In this document: positions 25,244 through 32,959 of the stretch, one piece after another
How the letters are laid out: each line of letters opens with the position of its first letter
Position numbering within the stretch: position 1 is the stretch's first letter
Assembly: GCA_037310415.1 (NCBI GenBank)
Contig: CP147780.1
Coordinates: 2,112,001-2,176,000, forward strand
DNA from: Candidatus Atabeyarchaeum deiterrae
GTDB lineage: Archaea; Asgardarchaeota; Atabeyarchaeia; Atabeyarchaeales; Atabeyarchaeaceae
Direction: 5' to 3'
DNA length: 64,000 nucleotides
The notes under the pieces: generated by a model
Seen by the model: only the letters and a program-made list of their open reading frames with translations
What the model was told of the DNA's origin: nothing
Database searches by the model: none
Made by a program: the position numbers and the translations under genes

Positions 25244-26620
25244 TTGCTGCCCCTAGATAAGAACATGTTGACCAAGAGATACTCTGACATGTTCGTCCAA
25301 TGCAATGACAAAGAAGTGCAACAATTCTACTGGTTATTGACTTTGTACCTTGCGAAATGTGACGGGATAGTTTCGCCTTCTGAGGTTCGGAATCTGATGG
25401 GTAATACGGGCGCAATCCCTTTTGATCCTTATGTCACTCCTTTGGAGAGAAAAGAATCTTTACTGATAAGGTTGAAGTTTCTGAAGAAGTATGACATCAA
25501 AACACCTGGCGAGATCTCCAGAGTCCTAACACAGGGTCTATTCTCGACGGGCAAGTTCAATGCTGCTGATCGAAGATACCTTGCTGAATTCGTTGAGCAT
25601 CCAGAAGCCTCGTTCAAACAGTCCGCAAGCAGACTTAAAGTGGCGACAAGCTCGGTTTTTGAAGCTTATCACAGGCTCAAAGAGGTGATCCAATTCCGTT
25701 TTACATTCGACCCAAACTATCCTCTTCTCAAGCTCAGGCATTTTGTCGTCTTCTTCAAACCGAACGAATCATTTGACAGCAAAGAGATCTCCAGTAAGGA
25801 GTTCATCTTGTCAATCAATCGAGACACATTCGGGAACTGGATGTGGGCCTCTTTCCTAGTTCCTGACCAAGATAGGATCTTGCAGGAGTTCAGAAGTGGC
25901 CTAGCTCGTTTCGCGCGGAAGTCGTTCGAAGACCATCGACTTTACGAGGTTAGATCCATCGGAAGACACTTCAATCTCTCCATGTTCGATGGGGAGAGGT
26001 GGATCTTCACCGAAGAGGCTTTGGGAATCGGAGCTTTCAAGTTCGCTGAACACAGTAAAGAGATCTCCACGCCCATGCCAGAATCTGCCTACGGTGATAA
26101 GCCTATCAAATTCGACAGAGCTGATTTCCTTATTTCATGCCTCAAAATTGGAGATTCTCGGATCAAGAATTCGAATATCAGGGAGGCTCTTACGGAAAGC
26201 GGTTACGACTTCTCATGGGTCACCGTCTCGAAGAGACTCACGACACTGAAGCGCGCTGGAGTCTTCTTCCCAGGCTCCTATTTCTCTGGGTTGGGCCTGA
26301 ATTTGGCGTTGATGTTCGCAGTGGAGTGCAATGATGAACTGGTCCGGACGTTCCAACACGTGTTTCCAGCGTTTCCGGCATGTGTTGCGAGCAGAACGGA
26401 CAAGGGGGTTATTTTCCACGTGAGAACCACAGCTGAGACTGGCACAGCAATCTCCTATCTGATGCAAAGCTTAAAGGACGAAGTGGATGATATTATCGTC
26501 GCAAACCGGCTCGAGAACATCGGCATCAGAAATCCGTCAGCGCTTCACAAGTATTGGAATAATGACAGACAATACTGGGAATTCCAGCGAGGCGTCTTTG
26601 ATTTGGCACGGCAGCCCTAG
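25244..26620 (+). CDS. Putative regulator: TerB-like N-terminus plus two Lrp/AsnC-type HTH-RAM units (paralog 1)
   Basis: LAKCDGIVSPSE; HTH1 DRRYL..PEASFKQSASRLKVATSSVFEAYHRL; HTH2 DRADF..SWVTVSKRLTTLKRAGV. Confidence 0.7.
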   Translation: MLPLDKNMLTKRYSDMFVQCNDKEVQQFYWLLTLYLAKCDGIVSPSEVRNLMGNTGAIPFDPYVTPLERKESLLIRLKFLKKYDIKTPGEISRVLTQGLFSTGKFNAADRRYLAEFVEHPEASFKQSASRLKVATSSVFEAYHRLKEVIQFRFTFDPNYPLLKLRHFVVFFKPNESFDSKEISSKEFILSINRDTFGNWMWASFLVPDQDRILQEFRSGLARFARKSFEDHRLYEVRSIGRHFNLSMFDGERWIFTEEALGIGAFKFAEHSKEISTPMPESAYGDKPIKFDRADFLISCLKIGDSRIKNSNIREALTESGYDFSWVTVSKRLTTLKRAGVFFPGSYFSGLGLNLALMFAVECNDELVRTFQHVFPAFPACVASRTDKGVIFHVRTTAETGTAISYLMQSLKDEVDDIIVANRLENIGIRNPSALHKYWNNDRQYWEFQRGVFDLARQP

Positions 26621-26914: not shown

Positions 26915-28306
26915 GTGAGCCTCCAAATGCCCTATTCAGGCAAGAGCAGATTAATGCAGAGATATTCCAATCTGTTCGTTCGATGCGATGATCAAGAAGT
27001 GCAACAGTTCTATTGGCTATTGTCTTTGTTTCTCGCGAAATGCGATGGTCTGATTTCTGCTCCTGAAGTTCTGCAGTTGATGAGTGGCACGGGTGCAATT
27101 CCTTTTGATCCATACGTGACCCCCGTCGATCGGAAGGAGTCTTTGCTCATAAGACTGAAGTTCCTCAAGAAATATGACATCGACACTCCTAGGGAGATCA
27201 TCAGAGTACTCACTCAAGGTCTGTTCTCAAGTGACAAAATGAGTCCATCAGATCGCAGATATCTCTTCGAATTCATCGAAAACCCGACCTACACCTTTAA
27301 ACAGTTCGCAGGCAAGCTCAGTGTGTCAGTTAGTTCAGTTTTCGAAGCGTACCATCGACTTGGAAAAACGATCCGTTTCCGCTTTCCTTCCCTTCTCAAC
27401 TTTCCTTTGTTGAAATTGAAGCATTTTGTGATCTTCTTCAAACCTAATGATTCCTTCGAGAGTTCCATGATCTCAACCAGAGACTATACTCTGAGCATGA
27501 ACCGAGACACTTTCGGGGATTGGATGTGGGCCTCTTTCTTGGTTCCGAACCAAGTTCGAATCCTCAAGGAGTTCAGACGCGGTCTGTCTAATCTAGCAGA
27601 TAAATCGTTTCATGACTCTCGCCTGTACGAAGTCAGATCTTATGGAGCTCATTCCAACATCTCCATGTTCGACGGAGAGCGATGGATCTACAGTGAGGAG
27701 GCTCTGGGCATAGGTGCATTCAAGTTTGCCGAACGCAACAAAGAGATCTTCACGCCGATGGATGAGTTCCTTTACGCCGACACGCCCATTCGATTTGACG
27801 ACGTCGACTTCATTATTTGCTGCCAAAAGATTGGAGATTCCCGCATCAAGAACTCGGCAATCAAGGAAGTTCTTCGACAGAACGGTCACAATCTCTCTTG
27901 GGTTACCGTATCGAAGAGAGTAAACGCTCTGAAACGTAAAGGGGTCTACCATCCGGGTTTCGCTTTCTATGGTCTAGGTCTAAACTTGGCGCTGACGTTC
28001 GCGGTCGAATGCGATGAAGAAGTTGTCGAGACCTTCTATCATATGTTTCCTATGTTTCCTTGGTGTGCTGCAAGTAGGACTGATAAGGGCGTGATATTCC
28101 AGATTAGAACCACAGCTGAAACTGGTCCCGTGATTTCTTATTTGATGCAGAGTCTGAAGGATGAAGTTCACGATCTCATCATGGCTAACCGTCTTGAGAA
28201 TATTGGCACTAGAAGCCCATTTTCGCTCCATAAGCAATGGAACAGCACAAAGCAGTACTGGGAATTTGAAAGAGGGGCTTTTGATCTATCCAAGAAGCAT
28301 CAATGA
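26915..28306 (+). CDS. Putative regulator, tandem paralog 2 (likely start ATG 26927)
   Basis: Collinear, highly similar paralog of 25244..26620; GGTGA SD before ATG 26927. Confidence 0.7.
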   Translation: MSLQMPYSGKSRLMQRYSNLFVRCDDQEVQQFYWLLSLFLAKCDGLISAPEVLQLMSGTGAIPFDPYVTPVDRKESLLIRLKFLKKYDIDTPREIIRVLTQGLFSSDKMSPSDRRYLFEFIENPTYTFKQFAGKLSVSVSSVFEAYHRLGKTIRFRFPSLLNFPLLKLKHFVIFFKPNDSFESSMISTRDYTLSMNRDTFGDWMWASFLVPNQVRILKEFRRGLSNLADKSFHDSRLYEVRSYGAHSNISMFDGERWIYSEEALGIGAFKFAERNKEIFTPMDEFLYADTPIRFDDVDFIICCQKIGDSRIKNSAIKEVLRQNGHNLSWVTVSKRVNALKRKGVYHPGFAFYGLGLNLALTFAVECDEEVVETFYHMFPMFPWCAASRTDKGVIFQIRTTAETGPVISYLMQSLKDEVHDLIMANRLENIGTRSPFSLHKQWNSTKQYWEFERGAFDLSKKHQ

Positions 28307-28358: not shown

Positions 28359-28982
28359 CTATTTCTGTTTTGACTTCTCTTTCAGTTCTCCAAATAACTC
28401 AGCTCTCTCTTCAGGTGAGACGTATGAGAAACCTATGACTTCCATTTGCTGCCGGTTGAAAAGTTGCATGCTAAGCGCCACAGGTTCGGTTAGATTCTTC
28501 TGGTATCTGTTAATGAATCCTTCGATGGTTTCTCTTCCCATGCGCTTGAATCTCGATTCGTCTATGGAGTACGTCGATTTTCCTCCATCGCCTGTTTCTT
28601 TGACCACTGATATTATGATGAACTCCTCAAAATCCTGACGGCTCAGCAGTCTCTTCAGGCATGCATTATTGTCTTCTGTTTTCCCGCATTGAAAGAATAT
28701 TCTCTGCGTCTTTGAGAACATCGGTTTTATTGTACCGGCGTAGTACTGAAGACCGGGATACCGTTTCTCAAGCTCCTTCAGAACATCTACAGTCGAGATT
28801 ATTTCTCCCGGCAACATTGATACGCCTCTTGTATTGCCCTCTTGATTGTTAGAGTTCAAAAACTCATATGACGTTCTATCCAATATAACAGTTTGCAGTC
28901 GCTCTCTATTTGAAGGGAAAAGGTCTCGTCGATTGGGACAGGGGACTGCATCTTGGTGAGTAGGGTGAATTTCGACAGTCAC
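28359..28982 (-). CDS. Hypothetical protein (likely start ~28817, MLPGEII)
   Basis: Long ORF filling the gap; no recognisable motif. Confidence 0.55.
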   Translation of the reverse strand: MTVEIHPTHQDAVPCPNRRDLFPSNRERLQTVILDRTSYEFLNSNNQEGNTRGVSMLPGEIISTVDVLKELEKRYPGLQYYAGTIKPMFSKTQRIFFQCGKTEDNNACLKRLLSRQDFEEFIIISVVKETGDGGKSTYSIDESRFKRMGRETIEGFINRYQKNLTEPVALSMQLFNRQQMEVIGFSYVSPEERAELFGELKEKSKQK

Positions 28983-29133
28983 CGTGATATCCTTGATTGC
29001 TGTCCGTTTCTCGAGGCAAAGCTATTTAATGCTGCCAGCATTACTGTTCATGAGTTCAACATCAAGACCGCGCAATGACGTCCGAGGACTGGACATCAGT
29101 CTAATGATCAACGGCAGAGTTTGAGGAACTCTT

Positions 29134-29895
29134 TTGGGGAAAATGCCTGAGAGGGGCTATCTTTTGAATGAGAGAGAAAGCACTGGGATAGCTGGACTCG
29201 ATGAAGTGATCGGCGGAGGACTAGCCAGACCCTCACTGACTGCCTTGATTGGAGCGCCCGGCACAGGGACAACAACCTTCTGTAAGCAATTCATAATGTC
29301 ATCACTTCAACGCGAAAGGAATGTTATGGTAGCTTGCACGGATGAGCCAGTAGGACACTTTCTCAGACATTTCAGGTTCCCTCAACCTTTTGACCTTGAG
29401 CCCTACGTGAGACAAAACAGATTGGTTATCTTAGATATGTACGAGCGGTTCACAGAACGGCTTGGCATAAAGAGTTACAGCAACATTGAAGAGGTTGGTG
29501 AGATTCCACTAGGGGAAATACTTGAAGAGCTTACGGAAAGAGTTGCCAGCGGGGTTCCCGGACTGCCACGCGAGTTTAACACTGTCATAGACTCACTTAC
29601 GGCCGTTGCACCATTCGTTGGAGTCCGTGACATGTATGCGGTCTTGCGTGAGTCTCGGAGAAGAGTCAGAGAGGGTAAGCACGTTGTTGTTCTTACCGCT
29701 CATGAGGGCGCTCTTGAGGGGAACATCATTCAGGCTCTTAGGCAGCACGCTGACTGCGTCATAAAAATGACTATGTCCTTGTCCAAGACAGATTTGAAGA
29801 GGCTAATGATAATCGAGAAGGCAGGCTTCACAGAGATAAAGCAGGCAACGTTAGAATTCAGTATTGGGTCAGCCGGCATTGAGATCAAACAATAA
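29134..29895 (+). CDS. KaiC/RAD55-like RecA-fold protein, type A copy 1, degenerate Walker A
   Basis: STGIAGLDEVIGGG, GAPGTGTT, VIDS, R.MIIEK...GIEI. Confidence 0.88.
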   Translation: MGKMPERGYLLNERESTGIAGLDEVIGGGLARPSLTALIGAPGTGTTTFCKQFIMSSLQRERNVMVACTDEPVGHFLRHFRFPQPFDLEPYVRQNRLVILDMYERFTERLGIKSYSNIEEVGEIPLGEILEELTERVASGVPGLPREFNTVIDSLTAVAPFVGVRDMYAVLRESRRRVREGKHVVVLTAHEGALEGNIIQALRQHADCVIKMTMSLSKTDLKRLMIIEKAGFTEIKQATLEFSIGSAGIEIKQ

Positions 29896-29916
29896 ACTTC
29901 AATTTCACGATTTGGG

Positions 29917-30813
29917 ATGAGCTCTCGAAAGGTTGATATTAGACTCATAAGAAAGGATATTCGTGATTTGTGCGGGGGGAGAAACGGGATAAACCGAACC
30001 AAGACTGAGAAAGTGAAGAGCCAAAATCCTAGGCCGCTTTCCCTCAACTCAGTGCCAAGCGCCCTAGAGAGCCATGAAGAGCGGATTCCTTCTGGCATAT
30101 TAGGACTAGATGCGGCTCTGGATGGTGGGTTTCCAGAAGGAACCATGATTTCCCTCGGTGGCGACATAGGAACCGGCACTTCAACCTTCTGTCTCCAAGT
30201 GGTGTGGTCATGGTTGACCACAGGGGGAGCAGCAGCATACTTCTGCGTTGACGACCCGCCTGAAACAGTTGTGAATCATTTCAAGAGCTACGGCTGGAAT
30301 GTAGAACGTTACATTGAGAAAAAACAGCTGACAGTATTTGACACAAATACTGTCACAAGCCACCTGTCATCTAAACCTGAGGGGCAGAATGGAGTCGCCG
30401 AGAGGAGGGCTCTCCTTGGTAAGTATCTTGGAGATGTACGGGAACAATTGCACTCCCTGGGAACTAACAACAACACGGCTCTTCCCACCTTGGGCGTGAT
30501 TGACTCACTCTCTTCGGTGGCTCCGTACATTGATCTGCGGTCAGCTTACGTGTTCGCTCACATGATCGCAGAATATATTAGGAAGAGCGAAGACCTACTA
30601 ATTGCAGTTGTTCACACGGGAGCTTTCGAGGCCAACATTGTCTGCGCATGTAATTCAGTAGCAGACGGCATAATCAGATTAGAATCTGCGCTTACTAAGG
30701 GGGAAGTGAAGAGACAACTTCGCATCGAGAAGATGGCATTCACGCAAATACCCCCAAAGACGCTTGAGTACAAAATTACGAGCAAGAATGGCATTAAGAT
30801 TATCACAAGGTAG
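29917..30813 (+). CDS. KaiC/RAD55-like RecA-fold protein, type B copy 1, degenerate Walker A
   Basis: RIPSGILGLDAALDGGFP, GDIGTGTS, VIDS, ADGIIRL, RQLRIEKM. Confidence 0.88.
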   Translation: MSSRKVDIRLIRKDIRDLCGGRNGINRTKTEKVKSQNPRPLSLNSVPSALESHEERIPSGILGLDAALDGGFPEGTMISLGGDIGTGTSTFCLQVVWSWLTTGGAAAYFCVDDPPETVVNHFKSYGWNVERYIEKKQLTVFDTNTVTSHLSSKPEGQNGVAERRALLGKYLGDVREQLHSLGTNNNTALPTLGVIDSLSSVAPYIDLRSAYVFAHMIAEYIRKSEDLLIAVVHTGAFEANIVCACNSVADGIIRLESALTKGEVKRQLRIEKMAFTQIPPKTLEYKITSKNGIKIITR

Positions 30814-30945
30814 CTAGCCGGAGCCACAAGTTACCTTGGCCAAGCAATCAACGTCACACGATAGCGGAGCCAATGTTCAGTGGTTCCCAACACGGTCAGA
30901 CAACTTCACAGATAAGCGCTTTGGGAAGAACTGAGGCGAGCCCAA

Positions 30946-31701
30946 TTGGATCAACTTGAGAGAGCTGACTTTTCACAATCCAGAGATAGTACCGGCATAC
31001 ATAGACTTGATGAAGTAATCGGAGGAGGTTTTCCAAGACCATCAACGACGGCAATAGTTGGTGCACCCGGCTCAGGAACAACATCATTCTGTACGCAATT
31101 CGCAGTGTCGTCGCTACTGGAAGGAAGAAAAGTTCTAATAGTCTGTACTGACGAACCCGTCGAACATTTCCTAAGGTACTTCAAGTCACGGGGGCCATTG
31201 GATGTCGATTCTTATCTGGAGGAAAAAAAACTAGTCGTCGTCGACATGTATGGCAAGTTCATAGAGCATATCGGGATAAGAGACTATGGTGATGTGAACT
31301 TGGTCCGAGAGTTTCCTCTTAATAAGTTTATCCTCGAGACAAGGAGAGCTGTGCAGACTGAGGAAGGAGAGGAGCCAAGTGGACTGACCACTATCCTTGA
31401 TTCAGTCACAGCTCTATCTCCTTTCTTGGGCGTTCGTGATATATATAGAGGAGTACGTGAAGTGCAGGATTTGATCAGGGCACATAACAATATCGTTCTG
31501 ATGACGGTTCATGAGGGTGTGCTTGAAGGCAACTTCGTTCAGGCTGTAAGACAGCAAGCTGACAATGTCATCAGAATGAAGATGCGCTGGGTTAGATCGA
31601 ATCTGAAAAGAGAGATGATAATTGAAAAGGTGGGCTTCACGGAGATCAAGCAACCAGTGCTGGGCTTTGTAATAACCGAACGAGGAATCGAAATCATCTA
31701 A
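30946..31701 (+). CDS. KaiC/RAD55-like RecA-fold protein, type A copy 2, degenerate Walker A
   Basis: STGIHRLDEVIGGGFP, GAPGSGTT, ILDS, IIEKVGFTEIKQ. Confidence 0.88.
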   Translation: MDQLERADFSQSRDSTGIHRLDEVIGGGFPRPSTTAIVGAPGSGTTSFCTQFAVSSLLEGRKVLIVCTDEPVEHFLRYFKSRGPLDVDSYLEEKKLVVVDMYGKFIEHIGIRDYGDVNLVREFPLNKFILETRRAVQTEEGEEPSGLTTILDSVTALSPFLGVRDIYRGVREVQDLIRAHNNIVLMTVHEGVLEGNFVQAVRQQADNVIRMKMRWVRSNLKREMIIEKVGFTEIKQPVLGFVITERGIEII

Positions 31702-31844
31702 GTTGATCTCCTATTGAAGTGGTTAATGTGGCTCCATTCAGATCGAGGCAAGAATGACAATCTACTCCCGTACCGAAAGAGTGAGATTTGTCCCTCTGAG
31801 AAGAGATTGCCTAGTCGCTGGGAAGTTGAGAGAGTGAATCAGAT

Positions 31845-32624
31845 TTGATACCAAAGTCAAGTACCTTCAGAGTTGACACTGAGAGAATTCCATCTGGTAT
31901 AACACTACTAGACAGGACACTTGCCGGAGGATTGCCCAGAGGAACGTTCATCTGTATCGACGGAGACATAGGAACTGGGACATCAACCTTCTGCATCCAA
32001 ACCGTGTGGTCAAGATTGACTCGTGGAGGAATGGCAGCATACGTATGCCTCGACGATCCCCCCGAGAGAGTGATTGAGCATTTCAGGAGTTACGGATTGA
32101 ACGTTGATGCCTACATCGAAAAGAACCAGCTCCTGCTATTTGACGCTCACTCATTAATGAATTCGCTGGCTTCTGCGACAAAGGGTCAGGATCAGGCAGC
32201 GGAGCAGGACAATCTATTTAAAGAACTGGCAGCCAGATTCGACTCCAAGTCCTCTACTCAATTGAGTGACCATCGGAATCTTGGATTTCCTCGAGTAAGT
32301 GTGATCGACTCGATTTCCGCAGCCGCGCCCTATACCAACCTTAAGTCAACATATGTCCTTGCACATCTAATTGCTGATCAAGCTAAGAGGAGCATGAATA
32401 TTGCTGTGGCAGTGACTCATACGGGTGCCCTTGAAGCTAACGTTTTTTCTGCATGCAGCTCGGTGGCGGATGGCATCATTAGAATGGAGTACAGCTTCAC
32501 AAGAGGCGAACTTAAGAGACTAATGCGAATTGAGAAAATGGCTTTCACACCGATACCAGCTAGACCACTTGAGTACAAGATTACAAGCAAGAACGGCATA
32601 GAGATACTTGACAACCAAAGATGA
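31845..32624 (+). CDS. KaiC/RAD55-like RecA-fold protein, type B copy 2, degenerate Walker A
   Basis: RIPSGITLLDRTLAGGLP, GDIGTGTS, VIDS, RIEKMAFT. Confidence 0.88.
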   Translation: MIPKSSTFRVDTERIPSGITLLDRTLAGGLPRGTFICIDGDIGTGTSTFCIQTVWSRLTRGGMAAYVCLDDPPERVIEHFRSYGLNVDAYIEKNQLLLFDAHSLMNSLASATKGQDQAAEQDNLFKELAARFDSKSSTQLSDHRNLGFPRVSVIDSISAAAPYTNLKSTYVLAHLIADQAKRSMNIAVAVTHTGALEANVFSACSSVADGIIRMEYSFTRGELKRLMRIEKMAFTPIPARPLEYKITSKNGIEILDNQR

Positions 32625-32698: not shown

Positions 32699-32959
32699 GT
32701 GCGTTTGGGCAAAATCGTGGGTGAGTTTAGCAAAGCCATCGCAGATAAGGTGCAGAAGAGAATCGAGGAAGTTGGACTAGTAGAGTTCATGCGAAAGACT
32801 GGAAAGAAAGAGTATGACATGCTCTCATTGTTCCGAGAGACTGGCATCAAGTCGGATAGTGTGAAAAACGAACTGTCATGCTGGGACAAGGCGCTCCAGT
32901 TTAAAGCATCTGGAGTCGAGAGTTGTTACCTCGATATAAAAGGAGGAAGAATTGGTTAA
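32699..32959 (+). CDS. Small hypothetical protein downstream of the KaiC-like array
   Basis: 86-aa ORF with AGGAG SD, co-directional with the array. Confidence 0.55.
   Translation: MRLGKIVGEFSKAIADKVQKRIEEVGLVEFMRKTGKKEYDMLSLFRETGIKSDSVKNELSCWDKALQFKASGVESCYLDIKGGRIG

Follow-up and report, generated by a model that had tools for sequence, protein, structure and literature searches.

Four KaiC-like genes in tandem

The window analysed here is a 64,000-nt stretch of the closed genome of Candidatus Atabeyarchaeum deiterrae (G000:C1:2112001-2176000; genome size 2,756,679 bp), in which four neighbouring genes encode KaiC-like proteins with Thr in place of the Walker A Lys. The genes, named A1, B1, A2 and B2 after the two types to which they belong, are listed in Table 1. 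All four open reading frames (ORFs) were intact, lay on the forward strand and together filled positions 29134-32624. B1 started 21 nt past A1 and carried a non-conserved N-terminal extension of ~40 aa; the B1-A2 and A2-B2 spacers measured 132 and 143 nt, respectively. The identity was 49% between A1 and A2, 54% between B1 and B2, and about 31-32% between A and B; in the trees, A1 sat in the A subclade, B1 being type B. The Pfam KaiC model PF06745 was matched by all four proteins, from model positions 1-2 to 227-230 of 231, with E about 9e-28 to 5e-30 and scores of 97.6-104.9 bits (cut-off 26.6).

A TATA-like, AT-rich octamer, TATTTAAT, was present at about 29023-29030, ~100 nt upstream of A1, within the divergent intergenic region. 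No comparable AT-rich box was found in the B1-A2 or A2-B2 spacers, so the four genes may be transcribed as one unit.

State of the nucleotide-binding motifs

The motifs were placed by HMMER alignments to solved KaiC and to Sso2452, and by aligning the window proteins to ten canonical KaiC-like paralogues from the source genome. As an earlier note on this DNA had claimed, and as the ORFs, codons and alignments bore out, the position of the Walker A Lys (K52/K294 in KaiC) was occupied by Thr in all four proteins, the P-loops reading GAPGTGTT (A1), GDIGTGTS (B1), GAPGSGTT (A2) and GDIGTGTS (B2). The remaining P-loop residues were intact, and the Walker B Asp followed by Ser was kept in all four. 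The position of the KaiC Glu pair (E77/E78, E318/E319) read D-E in type A and D-D in type B, and that of the K-x-R motif read KAG/KVG in type A and KMA in type B, both of which the earlier note had given correctly according to the alignments. The trans Lys of the latter motif was retained, and the position of the trans Arg (R226/R459 in KaiC) was taken by Gly in A1 and A2 and by Ala in B1 and B2.

In the CII domain of KaiC, the phosphates of ATP are held by K294, K457 and R459, and E318 acts as the catalytic base; KaiC with the E318D substitution is arhythmic (PMC2777353). Two of these three phosphate-holding basic residues were gone from the window proteins, and a change of the E318D type was present. 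In the KaiC-like protein ArlH, the Walker A substitution K33A abolished the ATP-dependent functions (bioRxiv 10.1101/2021.03.19.436134). Judged by their motifs, the four proteins would fit the term pseudo-ATPase.

The conservation of these positions was assessed in 30 Thr-type domains and their 35 nearest Lys-type single-domain relatives. The Lys position held Thr in 30/30 Thr-type domains vs Lys in 35/35 relatives; free variation at this position among close homologues, which had been named beforehand as refuting the claim, was not seen. The three P-loop Gly residues, the Ser/Thr and the Walker B D-S were present in all 30 Thr-type domains and were mostly kept in the Lys-type, and the trans Lys was found in 28/30 Thr-type vs 26/35 Lys-type domains. 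At the finger position, the Thr-type domains carried Ala (10), Gly (6), Pro (5), Arg (4), Ser (4) or Val (1), and the Lys-type relatives included 18 with Arg and 7 with Lys. The position is therefore relaxed in the clade and not fixed, and the reported absence of the Arg finger holds for the four window proteins but not as a clade-wide trait. Asp at the first Glu position, found in 28/30 Thr-type domains, is not clade-specific because 18 of the 35 Lys-type relatives share it. The sensor position was basic (His/Arg) in 30/30 Thr-type domains, with His common to the Lys-type relatives. The gains specific to the clade were E194 and N196, which form an L-E-[GA]-N motif, as well as P159 and F231; no conserved basic residue peculiar to the clade that might compensate for the Lys emerged from the comparison of the 30 and 35 domains.

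Origin and extent of the Thr-type clade

When the trait columns were masked and a maximum-likelihood tree was calculated, all Thr-type domains grouped in one clade, with an ultrafast bootstrap (UFBoot) of 97 and an SH-like approximate likelihood ratio test (SH-aLRT) value of 94. They remained one clade after three Helarchaeota long forms had been added (SH-aLRT 89). All Thr-type domains thus lie on one side of one branch, which indicates that Lys-to-Thr was a single ancestral substitution, older than the divergence of the four copies and inherited by them. Since the copies share only 49-60% identity and their synonymous sites are saturated, constraint on the Thr was gauged from the diversity of its codons. 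Over 19 loci, the Thr was encoded by ACA (9), ACT (7), ACG (2) and ACC (1), codon drift having left the amino acid unchanged. The sequences provide good support for selection on the Thr: among Thr-type domains about 25-60% identical the residue never varies, all four of its codons are in use, and it sets apart one clade. Of the earlier argument that the same change in four copies implies selection, the selection stands (Thr in 30/30, four codons), and the notion of four separate events does not, given the one clade.

The Thr-type clade is small and found only in Asgard archaea. A HMMER query with B2 against 1.84 billion representatives gave 2593 matches, of which only four were below 1e-30; the next match had E 2.5e-23, and almost all that followed were ordinary Lys-type proteins. 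Among the best 150 of the 2593 matches, inspected at the Thr position, Thr was confined to the Thr-type clade. In a survey of 201 sampled Asgard genomes, B-type proteins occurred in three, all from one family. Type A comprised 14 clusters at 90% identity, one of them named Candidatus Njordarchaeum. The A and B subfamilies were found in Atabeyarchaeia/Njordarchaeales. A third subclade, in Promethearchaeota and Helarchaeota (P0023, P0197), was fused to HTH_AsnC, a helix-turn-helix (HTH) domain. The Helarchaeota proteins, from three genera, were 566-581 aa long and consisted of an AsnC-HTH, the Thr-type domain and then a KaiC-like domain devoid of a P-loop. In two of the loci (L055 and L053), a gene for a major facilitator superfamily (MFS) transporter directly followed the Helarchaeota HTH-Thr-type gene.

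The KaiC-like family is greatly expanded in the 2.76-Mb source genome. It contained more than 24 KaiC-like domains, about 11 of them canonical, and six paralogues had fully decayed P-loops (Table 1).

Pairing and fusion of types A and B

The window contained two pairs of adjacent A and B genes and the sister genome G012 (2,808,651 bp) one such pair; A and B were also neighbours in 5/5 related loci that provided the metagenome contexts of homologues. The order was A-B or B-A. Moreover, A-B fusion proteins of 524-560 aa were encoded in the source genome outside the window, in G012, in the further relative G023 (two in tandem) and in metagenomes. In the tree, the N-domain of the fusions was sister to split A, and the C-domain was sister to split B. 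The fusion gene of the source genome adjoined an amidohydrolase gene and gatD/gatE/aspS-like genes.

The AlphaFold2 (AF2) model of this fusion had a predicted local distance difference test (pLDDT) score of 77.8 and a predicted template modelling (pTM) score of 0.78. Its C-domain superposed on Sso2452 with Z 28.3 and 2.0 Å over 215 residues, on PH0284 with Z 27.4, and on the CI domain of KaiC with Z 26.4. Over both domains, the fusion matched full-length KaiC with a Foldseek E of 4e-32 and a root-mean-square deviation (rmsd) of about 15-16 Å. The strict adjacency in either order, together with A-B fusions that mimic the two-domain layout of KaiC, leads us to infer that A and B are obligate partners in a KaiC-like hetero-oligomer.

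Genomic neighbourhood

Two genes for double Lrp/AsnC-like regulators, 69% identical to each other, precede the four genes, and a conserved divergent gene with a core of ~145 aa lies in between (Table 1). The double regulators gave no Pfam match; their designation is based on homologues named AsnC/Lrp by the sources and on Atlas feature and structure neighbours that carry HTH_24/HTH_AsnC. A third copy, 32% identical, was located elsewhere in the source genome. The ~145-aa-core gene had no family match and no usable Atlas match, and its AF2 model was poor (pLDDT 59.5). Its orthologues stood beside an Lrp-like gene in G012, G023, L046 and L048, and the layout of Lrp-like gene, ~145-aa-core gene and A-B recurred in G012 and two metagenome contigs. 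It is uncertain whether the ~145-aa-core gene belongs to the A/B system.

Downstream of B2, the SCP2-like ORF corresponded to the N-terminal half (61% identity over 76 residues) of an SCP2-domain protein, 163 aa long, whose gene comes after A/B in relatives. It stops where the convergent GH94 gene ends and hence looks truncated in the source genome. Two annotations of the region were rejected. A known defence system was considered, and PADLOC gave just marginal mad8 matches (E 2e-4 to 7e-4); the precomputed label PF23442 (DUF7125) was not reproduced in the source genome.

Table 1. Genes of the window and related features elsewhere. Plain positions refer to the window; C1 is the contig of the source genome (G000).
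Feature	Position	Strand	Length (aa)	Remarks
A1, type-A single-domain KaiC-like	29134..29895	+	253	Thr for Walker A Lys; Thr codon ACA 29269-29271
B1, type-B KaiC-like	29917..30813	+	298	Thr at Lys position; codon ACT 30178-30180
A2, second type-A copy	30946..31701	+	251	Thr codon ACA 31078-31080
B2, second type-B copy	31845..32624	+	259	Thr codon ACA 31980-31982
Double Lrp/AsnC-like regulator, copy 1	25244..26620	+	458	Conserved neighbour; putative link to A/B
Double Lrp/AsnC-like regulator, copy 2	26915..28306	+	463	
Conserved ~145-aa-core gene	28359..28982	-	207	Divergent, between regulators and A1
SCP2-like ORF	32699-32959	+	86	After B2
Double Lrp/AsnC-like regulator, third copy	G000:C1:1635164-1636579			
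A-B fusion, source genome	C1:2217416-2218933 (L044:8408-10090)	-	560	Thr in both P-loops
KaiC-like paralogue, decayed P-loop	C1:2452984-2453667			
KaiC-like paralogue, decayed P-loop	C1:1339158-1339838			
KaiC-like paralogue, decayed P-loop	C1:1464701-1465375			
KaiC-like paralogue, decayed P-loop	C1:1708215-1708913			
KaiC-like paralogue, decayed P-loop	C1:1665724-1666428			
KaiC-like paralogue, decayed P-loop	C1:2292702-2293403			
Helarchaeota HTH-Thr-type-KaiC-like long form	L055:818-2533	+		Hel_GB_A; also L051-L053
Unrelated ORF replacing A/B + SCP2-like site	L090:1625-2587 (G023:C101)	+	320	Between GH94 and ~145-aa-core gene

Possible function of the Thr-type proteins

We favour, with modest confidence, the explanation that the pairs A1/B1 and A2/B2, paralogous to each other, belong to an Asgard-restricted Thr-type clade and serve as a non-hydrolysing, hetero-oligomeric sensor or scaffold in transcription control. 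The clade ancestor would have swapped the Walker A Lys for Thr. Because they have neither this Lys nor the Arg finger, and carry Asp for the catalytic Glu, the window proteins are predicted to be incapable of any useful rate of ATP hydrolysis or autophosphorylation. A and B would assemble into a KaiC-like hetero-oligomer, as their adjacency and fusions imply, and the pocket probably still binds a nucleotide, or another ligand with a phosphate, but does not turn it over. The glycine loop, the Ser/Thr and the Walker B motif are invariant, while other dead paralogues have decayed loops, which hints that the Thr-type pocket has kept a use. The strict conservation of the loop and of Walker B also lends some indirect support to the idea of a different ligand in the earlier note. 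The complex would most likely be a sensor or scaffold module feeding transcription control, in view of the AsnC-type HTH that proteins of the sister subclade carry and of the double Lrp/AsnC-like genes beside which the pairs lie in Atabeyarchaeia.

Several observations weigh against this explanation. Folding by itself might explain why the glycine loop is invariant, and Arg is retained at the finger position in 4/30 Thr-type members. The Lrp link is based on synteny among close relatives, in which the entire region is syntenic, unrelated metabolic genes included, with GH94, glyoxalase, SPFH and ABC genes among those shared. At the syntenic site of G023, the Lrp-like and ~145-aa-core genes are kept and the split A/B pair is absent, its place being taken by an unrelated ORF (Table 1). 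The double-Lrp family, in 57/201 of the sampled Asgard genomes, is far wider than the Thr-type clade, whose B-type proteins were found in 3. Furthermore, neither Foldseek nor VIA revealed in the fusion, modelled by AF2 as a monomer, the stacking of CI and CII that a KaiC protomer has. The regulatory link, which depends chiefly on the HTH fusions found in the sister subclade, is the least secure part of the explanation.

A more specific form of the sensor model, which we offer tentatively and regard as rather unlikely, is that the P-loop has been repurposed. With Thr and small residues in exchange for the Lys and the Arg finger, and with the L-E-[GA]-N motif gained, the pocket would now accept, instead of Mg-ATP, a phosphate ligand of lower charge; candidates are mono- and diphosphates, cyclic nucleotides and a phosphorylated residue of a partner. 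If this were true, the A/B rings and their HTH-fused cousins would constitute an Asgard-specific family of hydrolysis-free small-molecule sensors built on the KaiC fold.

It is also possible, though doubtful, that the proteins are a ligand-free scaffold. The old ATP pocket would then be empty and only protein-protein contacts would be made, e.g. in capping or bridging KaiC-like rings or regulators, with the glycine loop and Walker B kept merely to shape the β1-α1 turn and the core. The loss of two of the three phosphate-holding basic residues, with no new conserved basic residue, agrees with such a scaffold, as does the general view of iKaiC domains as inactivated (PMC5847659). Nevertheless, the dead KaiC-like paralogues in the same genome show decayed P-loops, and the presence of the three Gly, the Thr, the Ser/Thr and the Walker B D-S in every one of the 30 Thr-type domains, which share only about 25-30% identity, is more constraint than folding usually needs.

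We consider it improbable that the proteins are still active ATPases or autokinases, rescued by the trans Lys, by the sensor His/Arg or by charges that a partner supplies. The trans Lys and the basic sensor residue are indeed conserved (28/30 and 30/30), and a few clade members keep the finger Arg. However, A and B are both devoid of the Lys, so neither complements the other in cis, and His is also present in the Lys-type relatives and is thus not a compensating change. The loss of ATP-dependent function in Walker A Lys mutants of ArlH and the arhythmic phenotype of E318D KaiC likewise speak against activity.

Very unlikely is a role as recombination mediators of the Rad55-Rad57 kind, in which a heterodimer of RecA-fold paralogues would aid the formation of RadA filaments. 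The heteromeric pairs, the RecA fold and the generic source name 'KaiC/GvpD/RAD55 family' agree with it, as does the deposition of Sso2452, the nearest single-domain protein of solved structure, under a RecA-superfamily name. On the other hand, the conserved neighbourhood contains no repair or replication genes, the RadA/RadB models gave marginal matches (E 1e-3 to 1e-5) in the P-loop region only, and members of the sister clade are fused to an AsnC-type HTH beside a transporter. The RAD55-like label used in the earlier note proved to be merely a generic COG name, with no context that points to recombination. Finally, we give practically no credence to recently inactivated duplicates heading for loss: the array is tandem-duplicated and the adjacent SCP2-like gene is truncated, but the four ORFs are intact, the identities (A1/A2 49%, B1/B2 54%) indicate an old duplication, and the orthologues at 50-60% identity retain every motif, so the conservation data already contradict decay.

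Comparison with known systems

KaiC-like proteins have been proposed as major signalling hubs of archaea; to our knowledge, almost none has been characterised except those of the archaellum and of haloarchaeal motility. Cyanobacterial KaiC, a CI-CII hexamer (PDB 2GBL, 7S65), has the same fold as the window proteins, and the A-B fusions copy its tandem two-domain layout. Unlike KaiC, the window proteins have Thr for Lys, no Arg finger and Asp for the catalytic Glu, and the loop that carries S431/T432 in KaiC is short. The circadian KaiC models TIGR02655 / NF006799 gave 25-64 bits vs cut-offs of 408 and 546, and KaiB (PF07689) was not found in the closed source genome.

The best structural matches were Sso2452 (2W0M), PH0284 (2DR3) and PH0186 (2ZTS), with Z 25-28 and rmsd 1.8-2.4 Å over ~215 residues; they were also the best sequence matches among solved single-domain proteins. 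These three have canonical G-K-[ST], E-E and K-M-R motifs and form homo-oligomers, whereas the window proteins are devoid of these motifs and occur as A/B pairs.

Wild-type ArlH binds ATP, shows no ATPase activity in standard assays and regulates its partner via its oligomeric state (10.1101/2021.03.19.436134). As a single-domain KaiC-like protein, ArlH/FlaH is the nearest functional analogy to the window proteins. It differs in needing the canonical Walker A Lys for ATP binding and in being encoded in the archaellum operon, whereas the neighbours in the window are Lrp-like regulators, GH94 and the SCP2-like gene. The ArlH/FlaH model (NF052589) scored the window proteins at 59.6-69.9 bits vs a cut-off of 215. 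The best-scoring NCBIfam model, KaiC_arch_4 (TIGR03881), reached 73-95 bits vs a cut-off of 247.8, and all four proteins were far below every NCBIfam equivalog cut-off (KaiC, ArlH, KaiC_arch_1-4).

The literature that we compared, to which the 2017 source paper on iKaiC did not belong, yielded no description of a Lys-less or Thr-type KaiC. Two complete Atabeyarchaeia genomes were recovered from wetland soil, and the paper that reports them does not mention KaiC (PMC11291895).

The closest established category is iKaiC, a class of KaiC-like ATPase domains that have become inactivated and take part in archaeal signal transduction (PMC5847659). We took its definition (Makarova, Galperin and Koonin 2017) from Galperin et al. 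2018 (PMC5847659), where the named families, DUF835, MEDS and iKaiC-REC, are all divergent. Judging from their sequences, the window proteins combine what defines iKaiC, namely the KaiC-superfamily fold and a disrupted set of catalytic motifs. Like iKaiC, the Thr-type proteins are archaeal and have a catalytic site that is disabled to judge by its motifs. The combination of iKaiC with signalling or DNA-binding domains has a counterpart in the AsnC-type HTH fusions of the sister subclade; the A/B genes of the window are just neighbours of Lrp-like genes, an arrangement not preserved in G023. In contrast to the named iKaiC families, the Thr-type proteins score as ordinary PF06745; their glycine loop is perfect, the Ser/Thr and Walker B are kept, and only the Lys (and, variably, the finger) is changed. 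They also differ in forming obligate A/B pairs or A-B fusions, seen solely in Asgard lineages. The Thr-type clade is most likely a new branch of the iKaiC signalling domains. It offers a clean natural experiment, in which one strictly kept Lys-to-Thr change in an otherwise perfect P-loop is present in both members of the pair and in the fusion. It would be a tractable system for the role of a P-loop once hydrolysis is abandoned, be it nucleotide sensing, the binding of other ligands or pure assembly. The clade would also mark a lineage-specific regulatory module of Asgard archaea, which includes HTH-fused one-component forms beside transporters.

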